64,000 nt of DNA from Vulcanimicrobiota bacterium (GTDB lineage Bacteria > Vulcanimicrobiota > Xenobia > Xenobiales > JADMJV01): positions 198,488 to 262,487 of the forward strand of contig JBFWNU010000009.1 of NCBI GenBank assembly GCA_050250895.1, written 5' to 3'. The notes under the pieces are model-generated. The model did not search any database. It saw nothing but the letters and a program-made list of their open reading frames with translations, and had not been told where the DNA came from. This document shows positions 1,698 through 43,350 of the stretch, in pieces (the stretch's first letter is position 1; every line of letters starts with the position of its first letter). The translations under genes and the position numbers were made by a program.

Positions 1698-1716
1698 GGA
1701 GCCCCCACCCGGTTGA

Positions 1717-3890
<2,174 letters not shown>

Positions 3891-23542: not shown

Positions 23543-24565
<1,023 letters not shown>

Positions 24566-26645: not shown

Positions 26646-26757
26646 AACTGCTACCGTCTACCGTCTGAAAACTACTGTCTGACTCTTTACCTTTGGTTCA
26701 CACCCTTTCCCAGGCTGCCAACTATGCTCCTGGATGGACGGAGGAATAGAAATAAAG

Positions 26758-28287
26758 ATGTCCATCAATATACAGACAAACAGATTAGCACGAAACGTGG
26801 TGGTGATGCCCACCAAAGCCCTGGATCGCGACCAGGCAAACCAGCAGCTCGAAGAAGCCCGCCCGATGATCGAGGATCTGGGTATCGAGATCACCCGCAG
26901 CCTCGCCTCGGCCGGCGCCGTGGCCGCCCGGGCTACCGAAGACCAGCAAGCGGCTCTCAAGAAGGCCGGCTTCCAGGTCATCAGCGACCAGAAGATTCGC
27001 CTGCTGCCCAAGGGCTGGCTCAAGAGCCCCAAAGCCCTCGAAGCCCTGGCAACCTTTGACTTTTTCGACCCCTTCGCTCCTTTCCGGCGCCCCGCGCCCC
27101 GGCCGGTCGAGCAGCCTCGCAGCGGCGAGGGCGCCAGCGACTATATCGGTGAACTGCCCACCAGCGGCAAAGGCATCGGCATCGCCATCATCGACTCGGG
27201 CGTAGAGGCTCATCCCGACTTCGGCGAGCGCTTCTTGGGCAACGTCAGCCCCATCCAGGCCAATCGTCCTTATAAGGTAGGCAAAGACCCGGTGGGGCAC
27301 GGCACCCACGTGGCCGGCGACGCGGCTGGCGATGGTCGCCTGTCGGGCGGTCGCTTTCGCGGACCGGCCCACGACGCCAACATCATCGGCATTCAGGTGC
27401 TCGACGAGAGCGAGTATCAGACCGACATGTCCCAGGCCCTCGAAGAGTTCACCTCGGGCATCGACTGGATGGTCAATAACCGCGAGAAATACAACATCAA
27501 GGTGGCCAACCTGTCCCTGAGCATGCCGTTGCTAGCCGAGGGCGGGGGTTTCTACGGCCCCGAACTGCTCTATGACCCCATCGGAGCGGCCATCAACCGG
27601 GCCGTCCAGGCCGGCATCACGGTGGTGGCCGCGGCCGGCAACTCGGGCCCCGACCAGGGGAGTATCGACGGCACCCCGGCCATCAATGACAACGTGATCA
27701 CGGTGGGTGCACTCGACACCAACGGCACGCCCCAGGACCGGCGCGACGACTCGGTGGCCGAGTTCTCGAGCCGCGGGCCCACTCCGGATGGCCGGCTCAA
27801 GCCTGATATTCTGGCTCCCGGCGTGAAAATCGTGGCCCCCAACGCGCCCGGCAGCGAGATCGATTCGCAGAACTCGCTGTTCGCCAAGGTGCGCGAGGCT
27901 GTGCCTCACATGAACGGCCGTCAATTGGCCGGGGTGGCCTACAAGATGGTTCAGGCCGGTGTGCTGCCCGAGGACGTCCTATATATGGACGTTCGTGACC
28001 TGCAAGACCTCTTCGCCTATGGCCTCGACGTGCAACCCACCGAGGGACAGTGGAAAGATGGAGCCGCCTATATCGGAATGGACGGCACTTCGATGGCTTC
28101 GCCGATCGTCACCGGTGTGGTGGCGGCCATGCTCGAAGCCAACCCTGACTTGACTCCGGCCCAGGTGAAGCAGATCCTGGTCGGCACCGCCGACCCGGTG
28201 GGCGGCGAGTCGCGGGTGGCTCAGGGCGCGGGAGCCATCAACGCTCGCAAGGCGGTGGAGGTGGCTCTGCGCAGCCGGGGAGCCTAG
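26758..28287 (+). CDS. S8 subtilisin-like serine peptidase (AprX-like, no signal peptide)
   Basis: IIDSG, GHGTHVAG, AAGNSG, FSSRGPT..KPD, GTSMASP. Confidence 0.93.
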   Translation: MSINIQTNRLARNVVVMPTKALDRDQANQQLEEARPMIEDLGIEITRSLASAGAVAARATEDQQAALKKAGFQVISDQKIRLLPKGWLKSPKALEALATFDFFDPFAPFRRPAPRPVEQPRSGEGASDYIGELPTSGKGIGIAIIDSGVEAHPDFGERFLGNVSPIQANRPYKVGKDPVGHGTHVAGDAAGDGRLSGGRFRGPAHDANIIGIQVLDESEYQTDMSQALEEFTSGIDWMVNNREKYNIKVANLSLSMPLLAEGGGFYGPELLYDPIGAAINRAVQAGITVVAAAGNSGPDQGSIDGTPAINDNVITVGALDTNGTPQDRRDDSVAEFSSRGPTPDGRLKPDILAPGVKIVAPNAPGSEIDSQNSLFAKVREAVPHMNGRQLAGVAYKMVQAGVLPEDVLYMDVRDLQDLFAYGLDVQPTEGQWKDGAAYIGMDGTSMASPIVTGVVAAMLEANPDLTPAQVKQILVGTADPVGGESRVAQGAGAINARKAVEVALRSRGA

Positions 28288-28329: not shown

Positions 28330-28809
28330 ATGATAGGCAAGACCGAGAAGGGGGATCTGCTGCTGGGCCTGCTGGCGCTTTTGGTCGCCTCGGTTGCCCT
28401 CGGCGTGGGCAGCAACCATCTGGCGTCCGAGGACCGGTTGGCCCTCGGACGCCCCCTACCGGCCAAACGAAACTATGAGCTTTTTCCCGCGGTGGCCCTC
28501 GACTACAGCAAGAAAGAGACTTTTCTCTTTCTTGATGTGCGAGCTCGCCCCAACTATCTGCTCGGACACATCCCAGGAGCGATCAACGTGCCCGTCCACG
28601 AGCTTGGTCGAAAGTTCCCAGACCTTAAGCACCGTATCATGACCAGCGGCGTGGTCGTCTATTGCGACAATGCCCACTGCCCGAAGGCAGACCAGGCTCG
28701 GGCAGGACTGCGCCGGCTAGGGCGAGAGGGCACGATCTGGATTGTCCTGGGTGGTTTCGAGGCCTGGCAGAGGGCTGGGTATCCGATCGAGAGCGGAGAG
28801 CCGCGATGA
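28330..28809 (+). CDS. Membrane-anchored rhodanese-like domain protein
   Basis: LDVR..GHIPGAINVP, VVYCDNAHC, GGFEAW. Confidence 0.88.
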   Translation: MIGKTEKGDLLLGLLALLVASVALGVGSNHLASEDRLALGRPLPAKRNYELFPAVALDYSKKETFLFLDVRARPNYLLGHIPGAINVPVHELGRKFPDLKHRIMTSGVVVYCDNAHCPKADQARAGLRRLGREGTIWIVLGGFEAWQRAGYPIESGEPR

Positions 28810-29249
28810 AGCCTACGGCCATCACGGCGGTCAGAGCTGTTCTCGGTGGCCTTTTCGTTGCCAGCGGCTGGGAAAAGGTACACTACCCGTTTCTGTTCGC
28901 CAAGGCATTGGCCGACTACAGAATCCTGCCGGCGCGCTCCGTCACGCTGGTAGCGGTTACTTTGCCCTGGCTCGAGATTCTGGTGGGCTTGTGTTTGTTG
29001 ACGGGCTTTTTAATCCGAAGCGCGGCCGTGCTGGAAGTTGTGCTCAGCTCAGGATTCGCTTTCGCTGTTGGCTCGGCGGTAGTGCGAGGAAAAGTCGTTC
29101 CATGCGGCTGCTTCGTTTCGCTCGGCTGGGAAGTCAGCCCCCTCCATCTTGCGCTCGATCTAGTCCTGGTAGGCCTCGGCGTTCTAGCCTATCTGACCGC
29201 CGACCGTGGTCTGGGTATCGACGGCTGGACGCGCAAGGCGGACGAATAG
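28806..29249 (+). CDS. MauE/DoxX family membrane protein
   Basis: R..LGGLF..SG..K, LPWLE, CGCF motif. Confidence 0.88.
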   Translation: MKPTAITAVRAVLGGLFVASGWEKVHYPFLFAKALADYRILPARSVTLVAVTLPWLEILVGLCLLTGFLIRSAAVLEVVLSSGFAFAVGSAVVRGKVVPCGCFVSLGWEVSPLHLALDLVLVGLGVLAYLTADRGLGIDGWTRKADE

Positions 29250-30155
29250 GTGCCTGCCTTCTTCTATAAAGGCTTTGGGCTCACGTTTTGCTCCGACCTG
29301 GAACTGCCGGAGCTACACCCGATAGAAGCGGTTGATTGCGATGTGGTCATCGAGCGCCAGCCCATCGAGGAGGAACTCGAACCGATCGACGGTCACAAGC
29401 TTCGCTACAAGGTCAGGAACGAAGAGATCTACCTGGGCCGTCCTAATCTGGGCCTCATTCGCATCGCAGGTGGGTCCATCCTGAACTATGACCCATCCCA
29501 GACCTGCTGCCGAAAACAGCTGCGAGCGGTCATCCTGGGCTCGGGGATTGCCGCCATCCTCTATCAGCGAGGGCAGCTCGCCCTCCACGCTAGCTGCGTG
29601 GTGGTCGACGGACAGGCCATTCTGCTGGCCGGCAACTCAGGAGTAGGCAAGTCCACCCTTGCGGCCGCCTTCCACCAGCGGGGCTATGCGGTCATCGCCG
29701 ATGACCTGCTGACCCTGCGGCCAGATGGTAACCGCCTTTTGGTAGAGCCTTCGGTGGTGCGGCTCAAGCTCTGGTCCGACAGCGCCAGAGCGCTCGGTAT
29801 CTCTACTTCCAGGCTCGAAGTCTTCAGCAACGGGCCGCGCCCCCGCTATCTCCTTCCCCTTCCGGCCACAGACCTCTCGTCAAAACCTGTGGCCGCGCTC
29901 GTGACTCTCGGACTTTCGGGTGACGGGAGTCTGGGGAGCGAGCGGGCCGAAGGGGCGCGCGTAGCTAATCTGCTGTACAGAATCACCTTCCGTCACGGGT
30001 TCTTGCGAACCCCACAGGTCCATCAAGAACACTTTCAAGCGGTGACCCAATGCGCCGAAAGATTGCGTTCCTATCTAGTCTGGAGACCTAATACCGGCTG
30101 GCCACCCGACCGATTGGTAGACTACATCCTGCACGTGATGGGCAAGGCTTCCTGA
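29250..30155 (+). CDS. HPr-kinase-like protein 1 (lasso-cluster tailoring kinase family)
   Basis: LHASCV, GNSGVGKST, ADD, LKLW. Confidence 0.85.
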   Translation: MPAFFYKGFGLTFCSDLELPELHPIEAVDCDVVIERQPIEEELEPIDGHKLRYKVRNEEIYLGRPNLGLIRIAGGSILNYDPSQTCCRKQLRAVILGSGIAAILYQRGQLALHASCVVVDGQAILLAGNSGVGKSTLAAAFHQRGYAVIADDLLTLRPDGNRLLVEPSVVRLKLWSDSARALGISTSRLEVFSNGPRPRYLLPLPATDLSSKPVAALVTLGLSGDGSLGSERAEGARVANLLYRITFRHGFLRTPQVHQEHFQAVTQCAERLRSYLVWRPNTGWPPDRLVDYILHVMGKAS

Positions 30156-30156: not shown

Positions 30157-31953
30157 GTGATCTTCGCAGAGCTATGGCGACTGGTCTGGAGGGTCATCCC
30201 TCCGTCGGCCCGCCCCTATGCCGCGCTCTACCTGCCGGCCTCGCTGCTGTCCGGCTTGCTCGACCTGACCAGTGTGGCTATCTTCTTTCCGTTCCTGGTC
30301 GCCATCACCAATCGCCGCGCTCTCGAACACCACCGCTATTTCATCAAAATACAACAGGTGCTGGGGGTGAGTTCGAGCAAGGATTTGCTAGTCTTTCTCG
30401 GTGTGCTGATTCTGTTGTCCCTGGTGCTGCGCGAAGTCTACTCCGTCGTCCTCTCCTACTACACCGTCCGACTTAACGGGCAGATTCAGCACGCTCTGTC
30501 AGAGCGACTGCTGCAGGTCTACCTCACCCGCTCTTACCGCTTCTTTCTAACGCGCCACTCCAGCGACCTCAGCCAGAATGTTCTGGTTCGGGTCAACGGC
30601 TTTTTGACGGGAATCTTCCAGCCCATGCTGGCATTGGTCCAGTCGGTGGCGACATTTTTCGTTTTTTTGGCCGGCCTACTCTATCTTCAGCCGATCCTGG
30701 CCCTGATCAGCCTGGTCACCTTCGGCCTCATCCATCTGGCCATTCACCTTCGGCTCGAACCCTGGCTCACCGAGTTGGTCCGCCGGGTCAGAGACCTGAA
30801 CATGGCTCGCTACCGCACGGCCCAGGAGGTTATCCAGGGCATTCGAGAAGCCAAGCTACTGGGTTGCGAAGGCTTCTTTCTCGAATCTTTCGCCCGCTAC
30901 AACCAGGAAGTGCATACCTTGATGCTGCGGCGCACGCTGGTCAACCAATTGCCCCGCCTGGTCTCTCGAACGACCCTCATGCTATTGGTGGTGGCCGCCG
31001 CCCTCGGGTTGGTAGTGGCCGGACAAGAACAGCACCTCGTGCCGATCATGTTACTCTATGTGATGCTGCTGTTTCGCACGCTTCCGCGTATTCGCGGTCT
31101 TTTCGGCTCGTTTACGGGTCTTAAGACCGAAATGGCTCAACTGGAAGACATCGCCGCCGACCTGGGACTCGAGCGGCCCGATGATCGAGCCATCGCCGCC
31201 CCGGTTGAAGCGATGCCTTTTCACGGACGACTGGAACTGCGCGGTGTCGGACTGTCCTACGATCAAGCCCGCCGGGCCGCCCTGGCCGATGTCAATCTAA
31301 CTATCGAGGCTGGGCAGAAGGTAGCGGTCGTAGGCCGGACGGGAGCGGGGAAGACTACCCTTCTCGACATCCTGACCGGCCTGCTCGCTCCCTCTCAAGG
31401 TGAGGTATGGGTGGACGGAACGGTGCTGGCCGACGAACCCAAAGAGTGGCGGGCCAACATCGGCTATGTCTCTCAAGTGAACTACATCATCGACGCCCCA
31501 TTGGCCCACAACATCGCTTTTGGTGTCTCGGACGAAGCCATCGACCTCGACCGTGTTCGGCGCGCCTGTTGGTTGGCGGCCCTCGACGAGTTCGTCGAAA
31601 CCGAACTGCCCGAGGGATACAAAACCATAGTGGGTGACCGCGGGGTAGCCCTTAGCCAGGGTCAGCGCCAGCGCGTGGGAATCGCCCGGGCCCTCTACCG
31701 CGACCCCAGCGTGGTTGTGCTCGACGAGGCTACCAGCAACCTCGACCCCGTGACCGAACGCCTGGTGCTCGAACGGATCTCGGCGCTTGAGCCATCGCGA
31801 ACGGTCATCTTCGTCAGTCACCGCATCAAGACAGTGTTGCGGTTCGAGAGAATCTTCGTGGTGGTCGAAGGGCGACTGGTCGGTCAAGGCGACGAGGCTT
31901 CTCTAACACAGACCTGCCCCGAGTTCGTCGAACTGTTAGCCGGTTCGGACTGA
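30157..31953 (+). CDS. ABC transporter, fused permease/ATPase
   Basis: TM N-half; GRTGAGKTT, LSQGQRQR, LDEATSNLD, SHR. Confidence 0.93.
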   Translation: MIFAELWRLVWRVIPPSARPYAALYLPASLLSGLLDLTSVAIFFPFLVAITNRRALEHHRYFIKIQQVLGVSSSKDLLVFLGVLILLSLVLREVYSVVLSYYTVRLNGQIQHALSERLLQVYLTRSYRFFLTRHSSDLSQNVLVRVNGFLTGIFQPMLALVQSVATFFVFLAGLLYLQPILALISLVTFGLIHLAIHLRLEPWLTELVRRVRDLNMARYRTAQEVIQGIREAKLLGCEGFFLESFARYNQEVHTLMLRRTLVNQLPRLVSRTTLMLLVVAAALGLVVAGQEQHLVPIMLLYVMLLFRTLPRIRGLFGSFTGLKTEMAQLEDIAADLGLERPDDRAIAAPVEAMPFHGRLELRGVGLSYDQARRAALADVNLTIEAGQKVAVVGRTGAGKTTLLDILTGLLAPSQGEVWVDGTVLADEPKEWRANIGYVSQVNYIIDAPLAHNIAFGVSDEAIDLDRVRRACWLAALDEFVETELPEGYKTIVGDRGVALSQGQRQRVGIARALYRDPSVVVLDEATSNLDPVTERLVLERISALEPSRTVIFVSHRIKTVLRFERIFVVVEGRLVGQGDEASLTQTCPEFVELLAGSD

Positions 31954-31990: not shown

Positions 31991-32881
31991 ATGAGCTTTC
32001 GTTACCAAGAGGCCGGCCTCAAAATCAGCTCGGAAATCGAGCTGCCCGAAGCCCGTTCTTTCTCGTTTGACGGCGATCCCGACCTGATCATCAGGCGCGG
32101 TCCGGTGCCCGAGCTGGACCAACCCTACCTTCAGGGAGGAGTCTTTCAGGCCGCCCGCGGGCTACTGCGCCTGGAACTAGACGGCGTCGCTCGTTACCTG
32201 GTGGAGCCAGGACAAATCCTGGTCGAACAGGCGGAACAGGCCGAAGATGCCGACATGCGGGTCTTTCTCCTGGGCTCTTGCCTGGGTGCGGCCCTCTACC
32301 TGGCAGGTCGCCTGGTATTGCACGCGAGTGCCGTCCGCCACCGGGGCAGGGCCCACCTTTTCGTCGGCCGCTCGAGCGTCGGCAAATCCGCTCTCGCCCT
32401 GGGCCTGAAGACCCACGGCTTGGAGCCTTTGACCGACGAATTGGCGGTCCTCCGGATTATTGACGGACACCCCCACCTCGAACCGACATTTGGCCATCTC
32501 AAGGTTTGGCACGATGTGCTGGTGCGAGAGAACTACCAACCCGACCAACTCCAGAGGGTGCGCAGCGGAGTGCTTCATCGCTACAAAGTGCCTTTCGAGC
32601 CGGCCGACGAAGCGTTACCAGTGGGGGCCATCCACCAATTGGGATGGTGGAACCAGGCTCACTTCGACTATCAGGAGATAGCCCCTCTGGAGCGCTTTAA
32701 TCGTCTGCTCCGAAACACATATCGTGGTGTCTATGCCGAAGGCCTGGGCCCGTCACGCCCGTATTTCGAAACCCTCAAGAGGGTTGCCGAGGTGATAACC
32801 GTTACTTCGCTCATCCGCCCCGACGCCGGAATCGACCGGCTGCGAGATTTTCCTGACTTCGTGGTGGAGAAGGTTCTATGA
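31991..32881 (+). CDS. HPr-kinase-like protein 2
   Basis: LHASAV, GRSSVGKS, TDE, LKVW; paralogous to 29250-30155. Confidence 0.82.
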   Translation: MSFRYQEAGLKISSEIELPEARSFSFDGDPDLIIRRGPVPELDQPYLQGGVFQAARGLLRLELDGVARYLVEPGQILVEQAEQAEDADMRVFLLGSCLGAALYLAGRLVLHASAVRHRGRAHLFVGRSSVGKSALALGLKTHGLEPLTDELAVLRIIDGHPHLEPTFGHLKVWHDVLVRENYQPDQLQRVRSGVLHRYKVPFEPADEALPVGAIHQLGWWNQAHFDYQEIAPLERFNRLLRNTYRGVYAEGLGPSRPYFETLKRVAEVITVTSLIRPDAGIDRLRDFPDFVVEKVL

Positions 32882-33747
32882 TCGTCTGGCTAGCTTCGTA
32901 CCCGAAGTCGGGCAACACCTGGTTTCGGGCTCTGCTTTCCAACTACTTGTCCGACTCGGATGAACCTGTAGATATCAACAAGATGGCCACCGGCCCCATC
33001 GCCAGTGCCAGGGTCTACTTCGACGAATGCATCGGAGTGGCGGCTTCGGATCTGACCTTCCCGGAAGTGGTGCGCCTACGTCCTCAGGTTTATCGGCAAC
33101 TGGCTCAGGGTCGCTCTTTTCCTCTCTTTGTGAAAGCCCACGATGCCTATCTCTACTCGCTCGAGGGCGACCCGGTCTTCCCCCCGGAAGCGACCCGAGC
33201 CGCACTCTACCTGGTGCGTAATCCGCTCGACGTTTGCATCTCTTATGCTCATCATAATGATTGCCCTATCGAGCAAGCCATCACGATGATGGCCGACCCA
33301 AAACACCAGTTGGCTCCCCGAGGCGGCGGACTTCCCGGCCAACTGCCCCAGCGGTTGGGTAGCTGGAGCGGCCACGTCCGAAGTTGGTTGCGTTCGAAAC
33401 TGCCTGTTCAGGTGATTCGCTACGAGGATCTCAAAGCCGACACTCAAGCCGTTTTCTCGAATGCCCTCGCCTTCTGCGGCCTCGAGTGCGACCCTGGTCG
33501 GGTGCGCAAAGCGGTCGAGTTCGCCGACTTCAAGAAACTCAAGCAACAAGAGAGCGAAAAGGGATTTCAGGAGAAACCCATCAACGCCAAGAGCTTTTTT
33601 CGCCAGGGCCGGAGCGGCGGTTGGCGAGACCAACTCACCCCCAACCAGGTGGAACAGATCGTCAGCGACCATAGCGAAGTGATGGCCGAACTCGGATATG
33701 AACTTCCGCAGGTCTTGCCAGGTTGCCGGGAGGGAAACAAAGAGTGA
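32878..33747 (+). CDS. PAPS-dependent sulfotransferase
   Basis: WLASYPKSGNTW, K.H, VRNPLD...S, RYEDL, FFRQG..GGW. Confidence 0.92.
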   Translation: MIVWLASYPKSGNTWFRALLSNYLSDSDEPVDINKMATGPIASARVYFDECIGVAASDLTFPEVVRLRPQVYRQLAQGRSFPLFVKAHDAYLYSLEGDPVFPPEATRAALYLVRNPLDVCISYAHHNDCPIEQAITMMADPKHQLAPRGGGLPGQLPQRLGSWSGHVRSWLRSKLPVQVIRYEDLKADTQAVFSNALAFCGLECDPGRVRKAVEFADFKKLKQQESEKGFQEKPINAKSFFRQGRSGGWRDQLTPNQVEQIVSDHSEVMAELGYELPQVLPGCREGNKE

Positions 33748-33763: not shown

Positions 33764-34045
33764 ATGAAATTAGACCTGTCTTCTATCCTTCGTAAGAGCG
33801 ACTCTCTTCTCGAGAGCGATCTTGGGGAAGAGAAGGTTATGATGAGTATCGAACGGGGGGAGTACTTCGGGCTCAACCACTCTGGCCGGTACTTGTTTGA
33901 TCTTTGTGATGGACAGAAGACCGTTGGCGAGATACTGGAGTGCGTTTCGGGGCAATACGACACTGCAGCAACCGATTGGCGCGATCAAAGCCACGCCTTC
34001 TTGAGCAGATTACTGCGAGATGGTATGGTCGAAATCGCCGACTAA
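33764..34045 (+). CDS. PqqD-family RiPP recognition element (lasso B1)
   Basis: DLGEEKVMMSIERGEYFGLN..G...DG..TV.EI...Y...FL..L...G. Confidence 0.9.
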   Translation: MKLDLSSILRKSDSLLESDLGEEKVMMSIERGEYFGLNHSGRYLFDLCDGQKTVGEILECVSGQYDTAATDWRDQSHAFLSRLLRDGMVEIAD

Positions 34046-34070: not shown

Positions 34071-34352
34071 ATGAAACGCAAGTGGGAAAATCCTATTGTC
34101 TATCGGATGGGTGTGCCTGGCACATTGGGCGGCATGTCCAAGATGGTCAACGAGGGCGGCCACGTGACGGCCACCACCGGCGCGGGCAAGGTCACTGCCT
34201 ATTGCCACGACAACTATGGTATTGGCAAGTCGAACGTCGGCTACACCAAGGTGCTGGTAACCGGGGGCGCGGGAGCTTCGGCCATGGTGCCGACCCTAAT
34301 CATGGCGCAGACCACCTGTGACGGCATCGGAACCGTTCCCGGTACCAGCTAG
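34071..34352 (+). CDS. Lasso-type precursor peptide, 93 aa (19-aa leader + 74-aa core)
   Basis: MKRK-WxxP leader, Thr at -2, core G1...E9, C-terminal Ser; AAGGA upstream; located between B1 and B2. Confidence 0.8.
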   Translation: MKRKWENPIVYRMGVPGTLGGMSKMVNEGGHVTATTGAGKVTAYCHDNYGIGKSNVGYTKVLVTGGAGASAMVPTLIMAQTTCDGIGTVPGTS

Positions 34353-34377: not shown

Positions 34378-34806
34378 TTGTTCAAGCGCTTCGCAAGATT
34401 TCTTGGTCGCCCGTGGCGCGAAAAATCGCTCGCGCTTGAGGCCACTGTCTTTATGACTGTGGCCTTTTGCCTTGTGAAGGTCGTTCCGTTTCGAATCTAC
34501 TGCCGCCTTCTGGGCCAGGAGGGCATAGAGTGCGACCGCGAAGCCGACCTTTCCTTACTTCAACGGGTCGTCTGGGCCGTGAAGTTTGCCGACAGGCTGT
34601 TCTTGCGTCGCAGTGCGTGCCTGTCGCAAGCCATTACCGGAAAGTGGCTGCTGCAGCGTCGGCAGGTCGCCTCTACTCTCTATCTGGGCGTGGCTTTACA
34701 ACCTCAGGCCGGCATCAAAGCTCACGCCTGGTTGCGCTGTGGTAGTTACATCGTCACCGGCGGAGCAGGTAGAGAGGAATTCTCGGTTGTCGCTCGCTTT
34801 ACCTGA
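34378..34806 (+). CDS. Lasso peptide leader protease B2 (transglutaminase-like)
   Basis: CLSQA..LL.RR...LYLGV..IKAHAW...VTG. Confidence 0.92.
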   Translation: MFKRFARFLGRPWREKSLALEATVFMTVAFCLVKVVPFRIYCRLLGQEGIECDREADLSLLQRVVWAVKFADRLFLRRSACLSQAITGKWLLQRRQVASTLYLGVALQPQAGIKAHAWLRCGSYIVTGGAGREEFSVVARFT

Positions 34807-36469
34807 GCTGGCCGTGTTTGCGGGACATCTCGGTCCGGGTCAGGTCGAGTTGACCGCCCCGCTGGGGCAGCACTACGGATTCTCCTTCTTTAGCCATCGT
34901 CCGACCGAGCAACTGACCATCGCCCAGAGCGTTCCCAGCGGTTCTACCTTTGCCGGTGTAGCTCGGGCCCGCCTGGATAATCTTGAGGCGGTGAAGAGAC
35001 GCCTGGGTCTACCAGCCCCTGCCGACCTGGAACAAGTAATTTCGCACGGCTTTCGCTCGGACCAGGAGCGTTTCCCCGACGCCCTGCTGGGCGAGTTTTC
35101 ACTAGCCGTCTTCGACCAGGCCAACCACACCCTATGGTGTGCCCGAGACGCAGTCGGCGTCTTTCCTTTTTTCTACTGCCAGGCCGGTGAATCGTTCTTT
35201 TTTGCCTCCCACCTCGAGGCCTTGCTGGCTATACCCGCAGTTCCCGTCGAAGTCGACGAGGAGACGATAGCACGCTTTTTGCAACACCACCACTTTTTCC
35301 GGCCGCAGGCCACCTTTTTCAGACACATCAAGAGGCTACCTGCCGGCCATGCGCTGGCATTACGAGGGTGCAACCTCAAAATCACTCGCTATTTCCGGCC
35401 CGACGAGATCCCCGCCGTGCAACTGCCCAGCGAGGCGGACTATGTCCACCTGATCCACACCACCGTAGAGAAGGCGGTAGCGCGCCGGGCCACCGGGGCG
35501 GCTCACCTGGGGACCCACCTCAGCGGTGGGTTGGATAGCTCGCTACTGACGGTCTTTGCTGCCCAGGCCAATCCCAAGAAGCTGACCGGTTTCTCATGGT
35601 CTTTCCCTCCTCCTGATGGTGATGAGGCGCTGCCCGCCGAGGATGAGCGCTCCCGCGTCCTGGCCCTGGCCAAAAGACTTGAGATCGGATGCGAGTTCAC
35701 CGTTCGCTACGCCCATGAGATTCGCCACCATCTGCTTCAGGACCCCAGCCTGGAGCGCTCAGTGATGACTCACACCGAAGAACCGGTGGCTCGCCGAGCA
35801 TCTGAGCTAGGAGTGCAGGTCATCCTTTCCGGCTGGGGAGGCGACGAGTTTCTCAGCAGCAACGGCCGGGGGGTGTTAGCGCGGCAGTTGCTCAGGGGTC
35901 GCCTGCTGGAGGTTTTTCGCGAATGTCGAGCGGCGGCCAGGCGCAACGCTAGCACAATCGCACGCGAGGCCTGGGCTCGAGTGCTGCCCCCGCTACTACC
36001 CGACGCCCTCTATCGAAGGCGTTATCCAAATCAAACCGGAAAGACCTTCATCGACGCCGAATTTGCCGCCCGCATGCCGGTCGAAGAGCCGATGATTCGA
36101 GACCACATCGGGCTACGCGAAAACATGTTGCAACTATGGCGGCTCGGGCACCTCGGCCAGCGGGTCGAAAGCTGGGCAGCCCAGGGCCAACCGCTCGGGA
36201 TTGTTTACCGGTATCCCCTGCTGGATCGACAAGTGGTCGAACTGGCCTTCGCTCTCCCCGAGACGCTCTTTTTCCGAGCAGGCTTTTCTCGCTATATCTT
36301 CAGGAAGTTTGCCGAGCCGATGCTGGGATCAGATTGGGCATGGGGACGCCCCAAGCACGAAGTCACGCCCCTGCAGTTTCGCAAGGTACCCAACCTCGAT
36401 CCGAGTCCCGGCCTGGTAAGAGATTCGGTGCAGGCTCTGGCTGAGGCCCCCCCCGCATCACTACATTGA
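34787..36469 (+). CDS. Lasso cyclase (asparagine synthetase-like); probably continues to 36578 via a frameshift at a C8 run
   Basis: ARLDN, LLGEF, ARDAVG..P, LSGGLDSS, SGWGGDE, YPLLDR; TTG start at 34787 after GAGAGGA. Confidence 0.88.
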   Translation: MSLALPELAVFAGHLGPGQVELTAPLGQHYGFSFFSHRPTEQLTIAQSVPSGSTFAGVARARLDNLEAVKRRLGLPAPADLEQVISHGFRSDQERFPDALLGEFSLAVFDQANHTLWCARDAVGVFPFFYCQAGESFFFASHLEALLAIPAVPVEVDEETIARFLQHHHFFRPQATFFRHIKRLPAGHALALRGCNLKITRYFRPDEIPAVQLPSEADYVHLIHTTVEKAVARRATGAAHLGTHLSGGLDSSLLTVFAAQANPKKLTGFSWSFPPPDGDEALPAEDERSRVLALAKRLEIGCEFTVRYAHEIRHHLLQDPSLERSVMTHTEEPVARRASELGVQVILSGWGGDEFLSSNGRGVLARQLLRGRLLEVFRECRAAARRNASTIAREAWARVLPPLLPDALYRRRYPNQTGKTFIDAEFAARMPVEEPMIRDHIGLRENMLQLWRLGHLGQRVESWAAQGQPLGIVYRYPLLDRQVVELAFALPETLFFRAGFSRYIFRKFAEPMLGSDWAWGRPKHEVTPLQFRKVPNLDPSPGLVRDSVQALAEAPPASLH

Positions 36470-36582: not shown

Positions 36583-37749
36583 GTGTACAGTATCCACCAC
36601 TTCGGCCGCATGATGGTCGATCACGTTCGGACCCGCGAATTCAGAAAGGCCTTGGAGACAAACCTAAAGCCCGGTCAGGTCGTGTTGGACCTGGGGGCAG
36701 GCACCGGAATCTGGGCGCTGTTGGCCGCCAAAGCAGGGGCTGGCAAGGTCTACGCAGTCGAACCCAACGCGGCCATCGAGATCGGCCGCAGACTGGCGGC
36801 CGAGAATGGGCTTGCCGACAAGATTGAGTTCATCCAGGGGTTGTCGACCGACATCGAGTTGCCTCAGAAAGCTGATGGGGTGATCAGCGACCTCCGCGGG
36901 GTCATCCCCATCATCCAGGGCCACCTGGGCAGCATTGTCGACGCGCGGGCCCGACTGCTCAAGCCTGGCGCCTGGCAAATCGCCGAGAAAGACACGCTAT
37001 ATGCTTGCCTGGTCGAAAACCAGGCTGTACATGACAGCTTCGCCAGGCCCTGGAACGATCGTCGCTTCGAGCTCGATTTGCGGCTGGTTCTACCCTACGT
37101 CATGAACCAGCATCGAGCCTATCGTCGCAACCCCAGCGAGCGGCGCACTGAGCCCCGCGAACTCGCAACGCTGGATTATCGCTGCGATCTTGAGACCACC
37201 ATCCATGCCGAGGCCACCTGGCAGCTTGAATCGGATCTGATGGTCCACGGGGCGGTACTCTGGTTTGAGTCAGAACTGGGTGGAGGGGCACGCTTTAGCA
37301 CCTGCCCCTTTCTAGAGCCGAACGAACGAGCCTGGATCTATGGAAACATGCTGTTGCCCTTCGAAGAGCCGTTGGCCCTGAAGGCGGGAGATACCGCAGA
37401 CTTCCAATTCAAGGCTCTCGACTCCCAGAATGGGTATCAGTATTTCTGGCAGCTTGAATCGGGCTCCGAACGCCGTCGCCAGAGTACCTTTCTGGGCCAG
37501 TTGCGAGTTCCGGGCGAGAGTCATAGGATCTCCGAGAACTTTCGCCCGCAGCTCAACCGCAGGGCTGAACTTGAGCGGTGCGCCCTCAACCTACTTGCGG
37601 AAGGAGCCTCCACCCAGGAGGTGGCAATGCGTCTGCAGGAGGAATTTCCCCGCAACTTCAAAGACTACCAGGCCGCCCTAAATCATGTCTGCCGGCTTGG
37701 GGCGAAATGGTTCAGCAACACTCAAATCGACGACCAGAGCCACAGCTAG
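36583..37749 (+). CDS. PRMT-like class I SAM methyltransferase
   Basis: MMVDHVR, VLDLGAGTGI, VYAVE, ADGVISD, LLKPG, HG..LWF beta-barrel motif. Confidence 0.82.
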   Translation: MYSIHHFGRMMVDHVRTREFRKALETNLKPGQVVLDLGAGTGIWALLAAKAGAGKVYAVEPNAAIEIGRRLAAENGLADKIEFIQGLSTDIELPQKADGVISDLRGVIPIIQGHLGSIVDARARLLKPGAWQIAEKDTLYACLVENQAVHDSFARPWNDRRFELDLRLVLPYVMNQHRAYRRNPSERRTEPRELATLDYRCDLETTIHAEATWQLESDLMVHGAVLWFESELGGGARFSTCPFLEPNERAWIYGNMLLPFEEPLALKAGDTADFQFKALDSQNGYQYFWQLESGSERRRQSTFLGQLRVPGESHRISENFRPQLNRRAELERCALNLLAEGASTQEVAMRLQEEFPRNFKDYQAALNHVCRLGAKWFSNTQIDDQSHS

Positions 37750-38064
37750 CCAGGGCGACGTCGTCTTGAATCTTGGCTTCGGGGCCTGCAACGGCTCGGC
37801 CAGCAAGCCTGCTCCGGCAAGCGAATGCAGGGCTAGAAGCGTCACCTTGCGGGCGTCCGCAAAGGGAAGCGGCAGCTGCAAACGTTCGACCAACTGATAG
37901 AGGGGCTGAGCCTGATCACAAGCCTGCAGACACTTCCCTAGCCAGCCTGGCAGCGCAATCAATCGACTGACTCGAGGTAGATAGGCCAGCATTTCGTCGT
38001 CGCCATCCCAACAAAAGACGTCGCGGCAAGTCGGAGGGACCATGATGGGTTCAGGCATAAGCAT
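37678..38064 (-). CDS. Divergent PqqD/RRE-like protein
   Basis: DEMLAY..SRLIAL...CLQACD...LYQLVERL...LLALHSLAGAGLL resembles RRE topology. Confidence 0.5.
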   Translation of the reverse strand: MLMPEPIMVPPTCRDVFCWDGDDEMLAYLPRVSRLIALPGWLGKCLQACDQAQPLYQLVERLQLPLPFADARKVTLLALHSLAGAGLLAEPLQAPKPRFKTTSPWLAVALVVDLSVAEPFRPKPADMI

Positions 38065-38887
38065 CTTGGCCCGGACTGATGCGCTTGACTCGGGTCGGAG
38101 AGTCAAACAACGAACACTGCTGGAATAGTTTTTGCTCTCCTGAAAAACCCAGCCACGTCCAGGTGTAGCCCTCTCGGGTTAGATTGCCGCTCAGCGAAAG
38201 TCTGAGCCTCTGTCCGGCAGTCACCTGCACGGGACCGCATAGCGGCAGGCGAAGGCAGACGCCGAACAGATCGGCGCCTCGAAGACGAAGCACCAGAGAA
38301 CCGATGGTCGCGGGTCGTTCGGCCTCAAGGCAAGCCTGGCGCGAAAAGCGACTCAGGCGTTCATCTCGCAAGCTGAGGCTTCTCAGAGAACGGAACTCCA
38401 GGTCGGGCGGTGGGTCCAAAGGGGAAACGCGATTGGCCAGGTAGGACTTCCAACCGTCATAGCATAGCTCGCCCGCGGGAAACGGGACGGTTTCTTCGAG
38501 CAGGGCCACTTCGAGAGTCATCTGGTCCGCCAGAAGATTAGGCTCGGCCCCGATCTGCTCGAAGGCTTGAATCAGAAATGGGTCAAGCCCTCCCCGAGCG
38601 AGGGGCCAGTAGAAAACACAGTGAAAGGTCTCGGACGGATAGAGAGCGGGCAGCCCGGTCCGACCCTCGAAGCGAGCCTCTACATTGTTGTCTCTTGCCA
38701 ACACCCTGGCCATCTCGACCTGCTCTGATGATCCGTAGAAGACTGCTTTCTCGGCCCCGGCCCGAAGAGCCACTACCGAGGCCAGGCCCGCGCCGCAACT
38801 CAGCTCGAGCAGCTTCGTGCTGGGCTCGATGCGGGCTCGCAAACGGTCGAGACAACCAGCTTGAGGAAGAGCGAATGGATGCACCAT
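38051..38887 (-). CDS. Degenerate PRMT-like methyltransferase paralogue
   Basis: LLELSCGAGL..VALRAGAEK, MARVLARDN; C-terminal GYTWTW..FQQCSLF parallels GYQYFW..RQSTFL of 36583-37749. Confidence 0.6.
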   Translation of the reverse strand: MVHPFALPQAGCLDRLRARIEPSTKLLELSCGAGLASVVALRAGAEKAVFYGSSEQVEMARVLARDNNVEARFEGRTGLPALYPSETFHCVFYWPLARGGLDPFLIQAFEQIGAEPNLLADQMTLEVALLEETVPFPAGELCYDGWKSYLANRVSPLDPPPDLEFRSLRSLSLRDERLSRFSRQACLEAERPATIGSLVLRLRGADLFGVCLRLPLCGPVQVTAGQRLRLSLSGNLTREGYTWTWLGFSGEQKLFQQCSLFDSPTRVKRISPGQDAYA

Positions 38888-41508
38888 CAGGGTTTACCCA
38901 TGGGAGCGTGCCAGAGAATCTCGGACAGAGCGGGGGGGTGGGTGAAGACGGCCAGAAGATGCCCCTGATCGTCTCCCAGAAGGGCCGAAGTGGCTGGGGC
39001 TGCCCCAAATTTCTGACACAGCTGCTCGAATCGGACCTTCTCAAAGCGCGGATTCTTCGGTCCCACCAGTTCGAGCGAAGGCAATGGCGATTCTGCGGCG
39101 GCCCGCAGCAACCACAACTGCAGCGGTTTGTCGGTGTGACCCAAGACCAGAGGTCGTTCTTCGGGGCGGGAAGCGGCCAGGGTTCGCACCTCCAGTCGGC
39201 CGGTTCGCTCGGACAGGTCATAGTGATGGCCGGCTGCAACCTGGTCAAATCGCTGGACTCGCCCCGACGGCCAGCGCACCGTCAAGCGAACGGGGCCATT
39301 GGCCAGCGCGAGCGTCTGAACAAAGCTGTTCTGCCCCCCGAAACCATTGCCGACCGTCACCTGGCTGGTTTGACGCCGTTTGCCCTGCTCGACTGTCAGG
39401 ACGGCCCCGACCGCGTCCCGATTCGACCAGGACCGGCGGTCGCCCGGGGTGGCCCCACCCTGTAAACGCAGGCTCAGCCACGATGCCCCTCGCGTCTGGT
39501 TGCGATAGAGAGCTAGCGAGGGCCGATTGAGGCTCACCACGGCCAGATCGGGCCGACCATCGGCGTCCAGGTCGGAGATAGCGCATCCCCGTCCGTCCGC
39601 CACAGAATTGAGGCCGCTCAAACCAGACACAGACAGAAAACGTCCGTCTTCAGTCTGGGCGAAGGCGTGATTCTCTTCGAGCCCTCGACGCGTCCTGCCC
39701 AGGGGGCCGCGGCTCTTGCCCGGCGCCGTATAGAGCCCGGCCGGAAAGAAGATATCCTGGCGACCGTCACTATTGAGATCGACGAATTGCCCACCAGAGC
39801 CATAGTCGACCTCTTCGAGCCAGGGTCCATCGACTGCCCGGAATCCGTCTGCCGTGTTGCGATACAAGCGATTGCCGCGCAGACATTGGGTCGAATAGGG
39901 GGCGTGGGCGAAGGCTCTGCGATTGAGGGTCGTGTTGGTCACCAGCAGGTCCAGACGGCCGTCGCCGTCATAGTCGGCAACCGACGCGCCACGGGGATTG
40001 AGCAGCTTCTGCTCGACTCCGCCGCCCAGCGGGTTGAAGCCACCGGCCCCGGTGCTGTAGAAAAGCGGGCTGCGCTCCAGAGCCGGCACGACGAGGTCCT
40101 GATGGCCGTCGCCGTCCATATCGGCGCACACGCCCGCCAGAGCATAGAATGGAGTCGGGTTGGAACCGGTCACCTCGAATTTCTGGCCCAGGTTGTGTAG
40201 CAACAAGCACTTGGGCTGGCTAAAGGAGAACACGATCAGGTCTAGCCGGCCGTCACGGTCTGCGTCGGTCGGTATGATGTTGGAAACGTCCCTCAAGGCT
40301 GGTAGCACGCTGCCGGGGCGGAATTTTCCCTGCTCGTTCGCCAGCAACAAGAGAGAGCGGGCTCCACCGAGCACGAGGTCGCGGTCGCCGTCGTTATCGA
40401 GGTCGGCGAAGACGCAAGCCCCGTAGAACTCGGGAAGGTCGAGGCCGGCCTCCTGGTCGCCGCGCCGAAACCCCCCGCCAACATTCTTCAACCAGAAACT
40501 GCCGCCGGTCCGTCGCGAGACGAACAGATCGTCGAGCCCGTCGAGGTCGATGTCGGCAGCCACGATGGTTGGTTTGCGCTTAAGGCCCAGGTACATTGGC
40601 ACATCCACGTCTGAACCGCTGCGGTCGGCTTGCAGAATCAGGGCTTCATAGGGCGATTGCTCTGACCAACCGAGGGTCTCGAGTGAAGGGACCCATTGAC
40701 TGGTGGCCTGCTCGAACCAGGGTTGATCCGTCTCAGCCTGGCGAAGTGCGACCCGAGGAAGGCCCACGAGACGCCAGTTGCCGGCTTGTTCTCGGCGGTA
40801 GCGAAACCAGAGGTTGCCGGCCACCACCCTGAATCGACCATCCTTGGTGCGAAGCTCGAGTGAAACACGCGCCTGACCATCCCACTCGCGCTCGCTTGGG
40901 TCCAGGAAGCGACCATCGACGAAGGTGGCGCGAACGTTGTGGAAACAGGCCACATCGTCCAGCAATCGCCCCAAGATTGCAGCCGGGTCAAACGCGCGCA
41001 CCTCGGTGCCAGGCATGGTCTCGATCACCTGCCAGGAGCAGCCGAGTGCCTGCTCGACCGAGGTGTCGAGGGAAGGGCCGAAGAGTTGAGGCTGAGCCCG
41101 AAGCCCGAGCAACTTCGTTGGCAAGCGCAGCTCCATCAGGGCCCTGGCGGCGGCCTGTAAATCGGGTTCTAGCTCGTCGCAGAGCAGGAGAGCCTCGGCG
41201 GCGGGAATTCGCCAGGTTGCCTCGATGCCTGAGTAGATTAGAGCCCGGCCGTAGAGCGCCCCCGAGAGCGGGAGCAAAAAGGCCACTGTCAGAGCCGTCT
41301 GGCGTTGTCCAGGCAGACGCCATCTCCAGCACAGCAGAAGACCCAAGACCACCAGAAACAGGCGCAGGGCCGCAATCAACCACAACACCTTGCGATTTTC
41401 GACCTCGGGTTCATCCAAGACCCACAGTCCCACCACGGGACCGGATAGCAGGGCCCCGGTGAAGACAAGCACCAGGCCCAACAAGCGATCGCGGGTCCAA
41501 AATTTCAT
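38887..41508 (-). CDS. CRTAC1-like protein: N-terminal TMs, FG-GAP repeats, ASPIC/UnbV domain
   Basis: Repeated DxDxDGxxDL motifs (DIDLDGLDDL, DLDNDGDRDL, DYDGDGRLDL); NRDAVGA, VRWPSG. Confidence 0.88.
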   Translation of the reverse strand: MKFWTRDRLLGLVLVFTGALLSGPVVGLWVLDEPEVENRKVLWLIAALRLFLVVLGLLLCWRWRLPGQRQTALTVAFLLPLSGALYGRALIYSGIEATWRIPAAEALLLCDELEPDLQAAARALMELRLPTKLLGLRAQPQLFGPSLDTSVEQALGCSWQVIETMPGTEVRAFDPAAILGRLLDDVACFHNVRATFVDGRFLDPSEREWDGQARVSLELRTKDGRFRVVAGNLWFRYRREQAGNWRLVGLPRVALRQAETDQPWFEQATSQWVPSLETLGWSEQSPYEALILQADRSGSDVDVPMYLGLKRKPTIVAADIDLDGLDDLFVSRRTGGSFWLKNVGGGFRRGDQEAGLDLPEFYGACVFADLDNDGDRDLVLGGARSLLLLANEQGKFRPGSVLPALRDVSNIIPTDADRDGRLDLIVFSFSQPKCLLLHNLGQKFEVTGSNPTPFYALAGVCADMDGDGHQDLVVPALERSPLFYSTGAGGFNPLGGGVEQKLLNPRGASVADYDGDGRLDLLVTNTTLNRRAFAHAPYSTQCLRGNRLYRNTADGFRAVDGPWLEEVDYGSGGQFVDLNSDGRQDIFFPAGLYTAPGKSRGPLGRTRRGLEENHAFAQTEDGRFLSVSGLSGLNSVADGRGCAISDLDADGRPDLAVVSLNRPSLALYRNQTRGASWLSLRLQGGATPGDRRSWSNRDAVGAVLTVEQGKRRQTSQVTVGNGFGGQNSFVQTLALANGPVRLTVRWPSGRVQRFDQVAAGHHYDLSERTGRLEVRTLAASRPEERPLVLGHTDKPLQLWLLRAAAESPLPSLELVGPKNPRFEKVRFEQLCQKFGAAPATSALLGDDQGHLLAVFTHPPALSEILWHAPMGKP

Positions 41509-41561
41509 CGCCCCCAATTCTGCCCGGCAGGACTAAACCCTACCGCGGTAAACGCTGGCGC

Positions 41562-43348: not shown

Positions 43349-43350
43349 AG

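Follow-up and report, generated by a model that had tools for sequence, protein, structure and literature searches.

The precursor gene and its operon

The window, i.e., the whole stretch of 64,000 nt that was analyzed, contains an open reading frame on the plus strand at positions 34071–34352 that encodes a peptide of 93 aa (gene A). It starts with ATG and stops with TAG. An in-frame TAG is located two codons upstream of the ATG, which makes this ATG the first possible start, and the sequence AAAGGA is found 12–17 nt upstream of it. The frame has a GC3 of 0.77 compared with an overall GC of 0.60 for the ORF. Residues 1–19 represent the leader (34071–34127) and residues 20–93 the core of 74 aa (34128–34349). 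The leader displays the aromatic-x-x-P-x-aliphatic motif of lasso precursors (W5, P8 and V10) and has a Thr at position -2 (T18). The core starts with a small residue, Gly20 (core position 1), and there is a Glu at core position 9 (E28). Two Cys residues are present, Cys45 and Cys83 (core positions 26 and 64), and the C-terminal residue is Ser. The leader motif is at positions -15 to -10 (W-x-x-P at -15 to -12), two residues nearer the cut than in the Bradymonadales precursors, where it is reported at -17 to -12.

The gene order is B1-A-B2-C, with gaps of 25, 25 and -20 nt. B1 (33764–34045, plus strand, as are all genes described here) is a PqqD-like RRE protein and the predicted leader binder (PF05402, E 4e-14; NF033536, the lasso PqqD model, E 5e-14). 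Its start was placed at 33764, as an earlier start at 33698 would extend the ORF into the upstream sulfotransferase gene. The homology search with B1 gave 1 match among 2 candidates, the window's own protein, and no other B1 homologue. B2 (34378–34806) is a transglutaminase-like leader peptidase (NF033537, E 4e-23, 82 bits against a cut-off of 33 bits; PF13471, E 2e-21). C (34787–36469) is an Asn-synthetase-like lactam cyclase (NF033535, E 2e-59; PF00733, E 2e-26; PF13537). The start of C may be TTG 34787, GTG 34814, or a codon further upstream as in the 587-aa database version. C is one open frame with the SGGLDS motif, and 99% of it is covered by its nearest homologue, P0007, which is 46% identical. 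The single frame and this coverage rule out a frameshifted or broken cyclase, and the "repaired" C that the original prediction called for is an intact gene. The ORF, the residue numbering, the 74-aa core and the flanking PqqD/RRE, B2 and cyclase genes are as described originally. With the complete lasso machinery and residues W5xxP8, T18, G20 and E28, the interpretation as a lasso precursor is supported, and ORF 34071–34352 is probably the true substrate of the pathway.

The precursor gene is within a run of 12 plus-strand genes with gaps of -20 to +113 nt. The first gene of the run encodes an S8 subtilisin-like serine protease (26734–28287; PF00082, E 6e-47), a candidate second protease, and is 42 nt from the next gene. 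This gene (28330–28809) encodes a rhodanese-domain protein with a hydrophobic N-terminus (PF00581, E 7e-14) and overlaps by 4 nt the gene for a MauE/DoxX-family membrane protein (28806–29249; PF07291 MauE, E 2e-23; PF07681 DoxX, E 8e-8). The MauE stop abuts the start of HPr-kinase homologue 1 (29250–30155; gap of 0), which is of the lasso precursor kinase type (PF07475, E 1e-9, 38.5 bits against a cut-off of 33.3). It is followed by an ABC exporter with fused permease and ATPase, the D gene (30157–31953; PF00005, E 4e-29; PF00664, E 8e-16), HPr-kinase homologue 2 (31991–32881), and a PAPS-type sulfotransferase (32878–33747; PF00685, E 1.5e-27). Some kinase-type lasso clusters are reported to start with a putative sulfotransferase gene (PMC8498205). 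A PrmA/PRMT-like SAM methyltransferase gene is 113 nt downstream of C (36583–37749; PF06325, E 6e-10, with weak PRMT5_C and PRMT_C matches). Two more genes are found 8 kb further along the plus strand. One encodes a PF14907 nucleotidyltransferase, an N-type gene (42305–43348; E 4e-37), and probably belongs to the same cluster. The other encodes a JmjC/cupin-type protein that may be a tailoring hydroxylase (43126–44604; PF08007, E 3e-6); its real start is probably downstream of 43126.

The two kinase homologues are divergent paralogues, with 28% identity over 307 aa (blastp, E 6e-27). Homologue 1 has the complete His-Lys-Asp-Asp motif, at H113, K134 and D151-D152; the motif was taken from PMC9266682 and located in an alignment without a characterized kinase. 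Homologue 2 has His-Lys-Asp-Glu in the same alignment. It shows no Pfam match and a sub-threshold match to TIGR04352 (E 6e-7). Lasso kinases are reported to act on the linear precursor and to phosphorylate its C-terminal Ser largely irrespective of length or sequence (PMC8498205, PMC9266682). A kinase homologue with this motif is thus encoded together with a precursor that ends in Ser, as expected of a kinase-type cluster.

A family of four precursors

Three relatives of the precursor, of 93, 92 and 81 aa, were found in searches of about 15 billion proteins. The first search gave 2 matches among 4 candidates, one being the window's own precursor. The second gave 3 matches at E <= 0.001 among 1,835,955,588 representatives, and 2 of these are family members. 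The family consists of P0001 (the window's precursor), P0002, which is 75% identical to it, P0003 and P0004, and is very rare. A protein search of 61 kin genomes found no precursor relative better than E = 0.02 outside the own genome. A search with the precursor alignment gave 32 pattern stretches in genome contigs and 100 in metagenome contigs, none of which was confirmed. The cyclase homologue P0007 and precursor P0002 both come from ENA, in each case from a contig of 12,159 nt, which indicates that they are probably on one contig. P0003 is encoded on 9 contigs, the longest of 169,960 nt, and P0004 on a contig of 754 nt. The match in length between P0007 and P0002 is the single link of P0002, P0003 and P0004 to lasso genes.

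All four members maintain W-x-x-P, GVPGT, Thr at -2, Gly1, Glu9, the two tail Cys and a C-terminal PGTS. There are 30 invariant columns, which include W, P, GVPGT, G1, G2, K5, V7, E9, G11, H12 and PGTS. Glu9 is the sole Glu of each core, and in P0004 it is the sole acidic residue. The core identities to the window's precursor are 54/74 (P0002), 48/74 (P0003) and 29/75 (P0004), and the leader identities are 15/20, 11/20 and 11/23, respectively. The core is thus conserved about as well as the leader, which points to constraint along its whole length. The core lengths of 74, 73, 72 and 58 aa exceed the 14–33 aa that are typical, although not defining, of lasso peptides. Judged by its sequence, the peptide has every mark of a lasso precursor, with a core of roughly double the length of any lasso peptide studied.

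The frame is open over 81–93 aa in three independent homologues. These full-length relatives, together with the conservation of the core, exclude an early stop, a sequencing error and a short C-terminal core as explanations for the length. The original prediction had named loss of Thr(-2), Gly1 or Glu9, or an early stop, as findings that would speak against it; the three residues are invariant, and none of the homologues stops early. The proposed check in homologues showed conservation of the length, E9, both Cys and the terminal Ser in 3/3. A short core was also considered at the residue level. A cut after VPTL (residues 73–76) would give a long leader and a peptide of 17 aa that ends in Ser and has an Ile77-Asp84 ring; VPTL is similar to the VPGTL ahead of Gly20, and position 8 of the short core would be Asp84. 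This arrangement is highly improbable and is contradicted by the family alignment, as Asp84 is replaced by Gln, Ser or Gly and Thr75 by Ser, Ala or Gly in the three homologues. Furthermore, W-x-x-P would be about 70 residues from the VPTL cut, and Ile is atypical at core position 1.

Each core has exactly two Cys residues, and both are located after the ring (core positions 26/64, 26/63, 26/62 and 21/51). This is the arrangement of class IV lasso peptides, and it is found in 4/4 members. The Cys conservation and the MauE/DoxX and rhodanese genes point to a tail-tail disulfide, which is probably present in the product. The MauE/DoxX protein is a candidate helper for this bond, and a DoxX-family gene, sviE, is reported in class I lasso clusters with Cys-containing precursors (PMC9266682). 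The same source reports that disulfide helpers are dispensable in other lasso pathways, which makes the link between MauE and the disulfide a weak one. Among the related loci examined, MauE and rhodanese genes are found here only.

A B2 relative is present in 4 of 401 sampled genomes of the phylum. Precursors of normal length are recognized in two of the four related B2-bearing loci of other genomes (L018 and L020); both end in Ser and neither has a Cys. The long core is thus an exception even among kin. No precursor was recognized in L017, where the contig ends 478 nt past B2, or in L019, with leader regular expression and Ser-ending filters that may miss some. L019 has a PF14907 homologue between B2 and the kinase, and L020 has a weak JmjC homologue directly downstream of the precursor (24% identity over 233 aa, E 2e-6).

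The C-terminal PGTS, present in 4/4 members, bears on the question of whether the tail remains on the product. The operon, with its tightly spaced genes, begins with that of the S8 protease, and this enzyme may act as a second protease that trims the product. The 93-aa peptide would then be a lasso substrate that gives a mature peptide of ordinary size, and the tail would serve biosynthesis or export, e.g., as a kinase handle, before it is cut by S8 or host peptidases. Cellular carboxypeptidases are reported to truncate lasso tails, and characterized lasso peptides are all of 33 aa or less (PMC13352647). However, the PGTS end and the second Cys, which is 7–10 residues from the end, are kept in all members, and the middle of the tail is 65–73% identical in the two closest relatives, which is hard to explain for a spacer that is discarded. 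The mature peptides of characterized kinase-type pathways retain the phospho-Ser (PMC8498205, PMC9266682). A search of the five related loci for S8 homologues also gave no match. Trimming is considered unlikely, and it is rated below maturation of the whole core, since few parts of the peptide are as well conserved as its extreme C-terminus. Maturation of the whole core of 58–74 aa is the probable reading: a kinase-type lasso precursor that would be closed by a G1-E9 lactam, phosphorylated at the C-terminal Ser and probably bridged by the tail-tail disulfide.

Structural predictions and proposed maturation

AlphaFold2 modeling on the four-row alignment gives a mean pLDDT of 34 and a pTM of 0.21. 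An Atlas model of the precursor has a pLDDT of 0.31, with feature matches all at <= 0.87 to unnamed clusters and structure matches at TM < 0.5. An autonomous fold, as in the "mini-protein" of the original prediction, is not supported by these models, although low pLDDT values neither prove nor disprove a fold in a peptide that is modified after translation. Prediction of B1 with the leader gives a score of 0.47, compared with 0.01 for the best of 3 controls, with contact agreement of at least 74% between runs and partner pLDDT of at least 49. Of 80 solved complexes, 58 reach the mark applied to such scores, as do 2 of 110 mismatched pairs; only 7 of the 80, but both of the mismatches, do so with scores at or below 0.60. 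Thus, of the two modeling checks proposed originally, the precursor alone gave no confident fold, and the complex with B1 gave weak backing for leader binding. Structures of B1-leader complexes have been solved, and the B1-leader result may reflect likeness to them only.

The segments HVTATTGAG, KVTAY and KVLVTGGAG are present in the tail, and the original prediction described them as repeated units. They reflect a Gly/Thr/Val-rich composition and not repeats. An internal duplication of the tail is rejected, as the tail halves align no better than shuffled sequence in the three members analyzed (2000 shuffles each; p = 0.47 for P0001, 0.98 for P0002 and 0.92 for P0003). P0005, an RCC1-repeat protein, was matched at E 5e-4 in the search of 1,835,955,588 representatives, with local alignments. 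On the real protein the family profile scores 11.2 bits and the best of 300 shuffles reaches 6.6, whereas a core-only profile scores -0.3 bits. An hhalign comparison with the 22 repeats of P0005 gives a probability of 10.9% over 23 columns, and no Pfam family matches the 4 members at E <= 10. RCC1-repeat homology is rejected on these values. What is left of the resemblance is a 23-residue motif of strand-turn-strand-like appearance.

The peptide might also not be lassoed. It could lose its leader and be phosphorylated while remaining an unthreaded, branched-cyclic product or without any cyclization, or it could be a small protein with another role whose pathway is silent or decaying. The threading of a 65-residue tail is without precedent in a natural substrate, and the family is very rare, with four sequences in about 15 billion proteins. 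On the other hand, intact open frames encode B1, B2, C, the ABC exporter and both kinases. Most of these match curated family models, kinase homologue 2 having the sub-threshold TIGR04352 match only. Every residue class needed by the lasso enzymes is invariant in four diverged sequences. In addition, a regular expression for leader, cut site and ring has a single match in the six-frame translation of the 64-kb window, ORF 34071–34352, and no second candidate precursor was found there. A search of the own 9.5-Mb genome with the precursor as query found no second copy, the next match having E = 0.2. Long tails can be processed to maturity, as engineered fusions demonstrate (PMC13352647). An unlassoed product is regarded as improbable, more so than a trimmed one.

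The gene content and sequence features described above are observed; the chemical steps of whole-core maturation that follow are modeled on characterized relatives. The 93-aa peptide would be made first, and B1 would bind the leader via W5-x-x-P8-x-V10. The C-terminal Ser would be phosphorylated, and the PF14907 enzyme may add a sugar to the phosphate; PsmN, an annotated nucleotidyltransferase, is reported to place a hexose on the phospho-Ser of pseudomycoidin (PMC9266682, PMC8498205). B2 would cut after Leu19, guided by Thr18 at -2. C would then activate the side chain of Glu28 (core 9) and join it to the amine of Gly20 (core 1), so that a ring of 9 residues closes around a pre-folded tail of 65 residues. 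The product would be exported by the ABC transporter. Outside the cytoplasm, a Cys45-Cys83 tail-tail disulfide would form, possibly with help from the MauE/DoxX and rhodanese pair, and its loop of 39 residues below the ring would also block unthreading. Further modifications may be carried out by the sulfotransferase, the methyltransferases, the JmjC protein and the S8 protease. In a speculative sub-model, core positions 12–25 (GH...TA[Y/F]) would be a beta-hairpin loop above the ring, and a conserved aromatic-Cys-His triplet at the ring would act as a plug. With no confident predicted fold, the hairpin and plug, as well as a compact tail, are unsupported by prediction. The expected monoisotopic masses are 7217.470 Da for the linear core, 7199.459 Da with the lactam, 7197.444 Da with lactam and disulfide, and 7277.410 Da with one phosphate added to these; each hexose would add another 162 Da.

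The mature product may, more tentatively, represent a natural "lasso protein", a reading held at somewhat less than even chances. This would be an exported product of about 7.2 kDa with a 9-residue lactam threaded by the 65-residue tail, a 39-residue disulfide loop and a phospho-Ser cap, and it would perhaps be glycosylated. C-terminal extensions and protein fusions are reported to be tolerated by several lasso pathways (PMC13352647). Conservation of the precursor sequence equals or exceeds that of its own cyclase, and under the "lasso protein" reading this conservation implies a structure-dependent function for the long tail, e.g., target binding or uptake, and not a spacer.

Comparison with known lasso systems

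The cluster is close to those of the phosphorylated lasso peptides of the paeninodin, pseudomycoidin and SyanA type. Similarities are the split B1/B2, C, ABC exporter, HPr-kinase homologue with His-Lys-Asp-Asp and a precursor ending in Ser, with nucleotidyltransferase and sulfotransferase as extra genes (PMC8498205, PMC9266682). It differs in a core of 74 aa compared with roughly 20–25 aa, in two kinase paralogues and in two conserved tail Cys. MauE/DoxX, rhodanese, S8, PRMT-like and JmjC genes are also present here, and the producer genome is 9.5 Mb. The class I clusters of sviceucin and MS-271 likewise have a DoxX-family membrane protein (SviE) beside a Cys-containing precursor (PMC9266682). 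However, its partner there is the thioredoxin-like SviF and here a rhodanese, and the best Pfam match here is MauE. The Cys pattern here is tail-tail and not ring-tail, and the sviceucin/MS-271 helpers are reported to be dispensable (PMC9266682).

Pandonodin, a class IV peptide of 33 aa with an 18-aa tail, is described as the longest characterized lasso peptide (PMC13352647). Like the present family, it has a C-terminal tail of unusual length with a Cys pair inside the tail (PMC13352647), but there is no sequence similarity, and the predicted 65-residue tail, the 39-residue disulfide loop and the kinase-type cluster are found only here. Engineered fusions of astexin-1, pandonodin and others have long C-terminal extensions that are matured by lasso enzymes (PMC13352647). 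Unlike these artificial fusions, the long tail here is natural and conserved, and has its own predicted modification sites. Solved lasso structures are of 14–33 aa (PMC13352647, PMC12214591). The literature search found no characterized natural lasso peptide above 33 aa and no mention of the present family, although supplementary precursor lists might include long cores. The LassoPred database lists predicted lasso sequences of 12–160 aa, with those above 60 aa being scarce (PMC12214591), and predicted cores of such length are thus already on record. None of the long cores is characterized there, whereas the family described here is conserved across four diverged members.

The value of lasso peptides lies in their very stable, mechanically interlocked scaffold. 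The candidate tailoring set at this locus is unusually large, with two kinases, a nucleotidyltransferase, a sulfotransferase, methyltransferases, a JmjC protein, the MauE/rhodanese pair and an S8 protease, and several of these enzymes are without a known role in lasso biosynthesis. If the "lasso protein" reading is correct, the product would exceed every known lasso peptide more than twofold in size. A lasso knot on a chain of 58–74 residues would mean that tail length sets no limit to the enzymes, and would raise the question of the role of a conserved, Cys-bridged and Gly/Thr-rich tail. The family would then represent a natural template for lasso-capped proteins.

Precursor gene and conserved long core

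The precursor gene, A, is an ORF at positions 34071–34352 (+) and has 93 codons, an ATG start and a TAG stop. The start is fixed by an in-frame TAG two codons upstream of the ATG, and an AAAGGA is found 12–17 nt upstream. The frame has a GC3 of 0.77 vs an overall ORF GC of 0.60. Counted from Met1, the protein has W5, P8, T18, G20 and E28. With L19 as the last leader residue, the core is 74 residues, with Gly1, Glu9, Cys26, Cys64 and a C-terminal Ser, which agrees with the original prediction of a giant lasso precursor. Across the 64 kb translated in six frames, the regular expression aromatic-x-x-P-x-aliphatic ... G ... T-x-small ... D/E has a single match, namely this ORF. The tail is rich in Gly, Thr, Val and Ala (15, 11, 8 and 7 of 74 residues) and is basic (pI 8.0–9.6), with acidic residues nearly absent.

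Three homologues were found. A word-indexed search of 5.8 billion clusters gave two matches among four candidates, one being the window's own protein and the other P0002 (93 aa, 75% identical to the window precursor). Scanning all of 1.84 billion representatives with HMMER gave P0003 (92 aa, E 2e-34) and P0004 (81 aa, E 4e-6); the sole other match at E ≤ 0.001 is an RCC1-repeat protein, P0005. The four-way MAFFT alignment has 30 invariant columns. These are W5, E6, P8, Y11 and G14-V15-P16-G17-T18 in the leader, G20, G21, K24, V26, E28, G30 and H31 in the ring region, T42-A43, C45-H46, G52, G68, S70, P74, T81 and G85 in the tail, and P90-G91-T92-S93 at the C-terminus. All four members keep the second Cys, 7–10 residues before the end, with that of P0004 offset one column by MAFFT. 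Glu9 is the only Glu in each of the four cores and the only acidic residue in the core of P0004. The Thr at -2, Gly1 and Glu9 of the original prediction are invariant, and the Cys pair and terminal Ser are likewise kept in cores of 74, 73, 72 and 58 aa. An early stop, a read-through artefact and a chance ORF are dismissed, as the alignment retains the long core. A short lasso core formed by the C-terminal end, with cleavage after VPTL and a ring from Ile77 to Asp84, is extremely improbable because Asp84 and Thr75 vary across the homologues.

In RiPP precursors, variability is usually concentrated in the core. Judged from the aligned sequences, this does not hold for the present family: identities to the window peptide for P0002, P0003 and P0004 are 54/74, 48/74 and 29/75 in the core and 15/20, 11/20 and 11/23 in the leader. 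The nearest homologue of cyclase C is 46% identical. The contig given for it and the one given for P0002 are both from ENA and both 12,159 nt long. If the two proteins share one contig, conservation would be far stronger in the precursor (75%) than in the enzyme, contrary to what is usual for RiPPs. Indels between the four sequences are confined to three or four discrete places, which is compatible with a chain built of defined segments but is no proof of a fold.

The repeated strand-turn units originally perceived in the tail are no better than those of shuffled sequences (p = 0.47, 0.98 and 0.92) and are not upheld. AlphaFold2 modeling of the precursor with the four-row alignment gives a pLDDT of 34, and the Atlas model 0.31. 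The sole recurrent predicted element is a low-confidence hairpin of residues 32–36 and 40–44. A 23-residue stretch, residues 29–51 (positions 34155–34223), resembles the RCC1 strand-turn-strand consensus G-H-x-x-A-x-T-x-x-G-x-V-x-A-aromatic and hints at a beta-hairpin. Homology of the precursor to RCC1 proteins is not significant (hhalign 10.9%), the resemblance being that one motif.

Gene order and cluster composition

The precursor ORF is separated by 25 nt from the PqqD/RRE gene (B1) upstream and by 25 nt from the leader peptidase gene (B2) downstream; the Asn-synthetase-like cyclase gene (C) overlaps B2 by 20 nt. B1 matches PF05402 (E 4e-14) and NF033536, lasso peptide biosynthesis PqqD family chaperone. 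B2 matches NF033537, lasso peptide biosynthesis B2 protein, with 82 bits vs a curated cut-off of 33, and the best NCBIfam match of C is NF033535, lasso isopeptide cyclase (E 2e-59). The original prediction called for a repaired C, and no repair is needed: C is one open frame with a visible SGGLDS motif, 99% covered by its nearest homologue, and only its start codon is uncertain.

These four genes lie towards the end of a twelve-gene plus-strand run, in which intergenic distances are -20 to +113 nt. The run begins with an S8 protease gene, followed by a rhodanese gene translationally coupled to a MauE/DoxX membrane protein gene (PF07291, E 2e-23; the pair at 28330–29249), which abuts the first of two HPr-kinase homologues (29250–30155). 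An ABC exporter gene separates this from the second homologue (31991–32881), and a sulfotransferase gene lies between the latter and B1. A PrmA/PRMT-like methyltransferase gene (36583–37749) ends the run. Two minus-strand genes, a methyltransferase-like gene (38051–38887) and one for a large FG-GAP/ASPIC-repeat protein (38887–41517), separate it from a second plus-strand group. The PF14907 nucleotidyltransferase and JmjC-type genes of this group are counted as cluster members because their homologues are located inside the kinase-type lasso loci L019 and L020 of related genomes.

Up to four SAM-methyltransferase-like genes surround the cluster: 36583–37749, 38051–38887 (-), 25524–26645 (-) and 41562–42308. 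Two have PrmA/PRMT-like matches, one has a below-cut-off PrmA match only, and 41562–42308 has no significant family match. The core of the window peptide is devoid of Arg, which would leave Lys, the N-terminus or some other site as the target of any peptide methylation. A GDP-mannose 4,6-dehydratase gene (23543–24529 (-); PF16363, E 4e-126) is 2 kb upstream of the operon and might provide sugar-nucleotide or be unrelated.

Proposed maturation

From the observed gene content and motifs we infer all chemical steps of the following scheme. B1 would bind the leader. The predicted complex scores 0.47 vs 0.01 for the best control, with at least 74% of contacts shared between runs and a partner pLDDT of at least 49, and gives weak support to this step. 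Of the reference pairs, 58 of 80 solved ones and 2 of 110 mismatched ones pass the mark used, but only 7 of the solved ones, and both mismatched ones, pass it with a score ≤ 0.60. B1-leader complexes have already been solved, and the pass may reflect likeness to these only.

Ser93 would be phosphorylated by one or both kinases while the peptide is linear, with possible addition of a sugar to the phosphate by the PF14907 enzyme. B2 would then cleave after Leu19 and C would join Gly1 to Glu9 around the pre-folded tail, so that tail length presents no topological obstacle. Engineered lasso fusions with long C-terminal extensions are described as maturing in several systems (PMC13352647). The ABC transporter would export the product, and the two Cys would then form a tail-tail bridge, possibly aided by the MauE/DoxX and rhodanese proteins. 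The resulting loop of 39 residues would hold the thread in place. In a more speculative sub-model, core residues 12–25 lie above the ring as a hairpin loop, with the conserved aromatic-Cys-His as the plug. The 6-residue deletion in P0004 falls within this putative hairpin, as expected of a loop of variable length.

The product probably keeps the full core with a lasso ring. Later trimming, for which the S8 protease is the candidate, is unlikely; that no lasso is formed, or that the cluster is silent, is more unlikely still.

Comparison with kinase-type and related loci

Lasso clusters with an HPr-kinase homologue are reported to have precursors ending in Ser and a His-Lys-Asp-Asp catalytic motif in the kinase; in pseudomycoidin the nucleotidyltransferase PsmN attaches hexose to the phosphate, and some such clusters start with a sulfotransferase gene of unknown role (reviews PMC8498205, PMC9266682). 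The window cluster likewise has a Ser-ending precursor, HPr-kinase homologues, nucleotidyltransferase and sulfotransferase. Its first kinase homologue has H113, K134, D151 and D152. In the second, which is 28% identical to the first and has no Pfam match, the last Asp is replaced by Glu; possible roles are those of a kinase for a second site, a partner in polyphosphorylation or a subunit without catalytic activity. A DoxX-family gene of Cys-containing class I clusters has been proposed to function in disulfide formation and is reported to be dispensable there (PMC9266682).

B2 relatives are rare: at E ≤ 1e-8 they are found in 4 of 401 phylum-sample genomes, counting that of the window. A precursor is recognised in two of the four B2-bearing loci from other genomes, L018 (approximately 50 aa, with a 25-aa core) and L020 (47 aa, immediately downstream of B1). 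The two share Gly-Gly where the core is predicted to begin, an acidic residue at position 7–9 and a C-terminal Ser, and are without Cys. No precursor is recognised in L019, nor in L017, the contig of which ends 478 nt past B2. In this very small sample the long two-Cys core is the exception among its kin. Among the loci examined, homologues of the MauE, rhodanese and S8 genes occur only with that core, and the rhodanese and MauE/DoxX pair at the operon head only with a two-Cys precursor.

The closest B2 relative (41%; L017, 473–1215 (-)) directly follows a B1 gene with no space for a precursor between. Beside this pair is an FG-GAP/ASPIC protein gene (1307–4282, G009:C222), 30% identical to that of the window over 368 aa (E 1e-18). 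The family is common in large environmental bacterial genomes, and its position beside lasso genes in both loci may be a coincidence. The window's own genome has a second B2-like transglutaminase-core gene, 37% identical (G000:C1:933505–933906; loci L014 and L016), with no cyclase or B1 homologue detected in the 16 kb around it.

By every sequence-level criterion tested, the window precursor belongs to the lasso class, in the kinase-type subgroup and with a class IV-like Cys pattern; what sets it apart from the known class is its size. The longest characterised lasso peptide according to a 2026 review is pandonodin (33 aa; PMC13352647). Solved structures are described as 14–33 aa, and the LassoPred database as covering 12–160 aa with those above 60 aa "scarce" (PMC12214591); long lasso cores are thus already known in silico. 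In the literature searched, neither a characterised natural lasso peptide above 33 aa nor this precursor family is described. The novelty is in the combination of ordinary lasso machinery with an extraordinary conserved substrate and an unusually rich set of tailoring genes.
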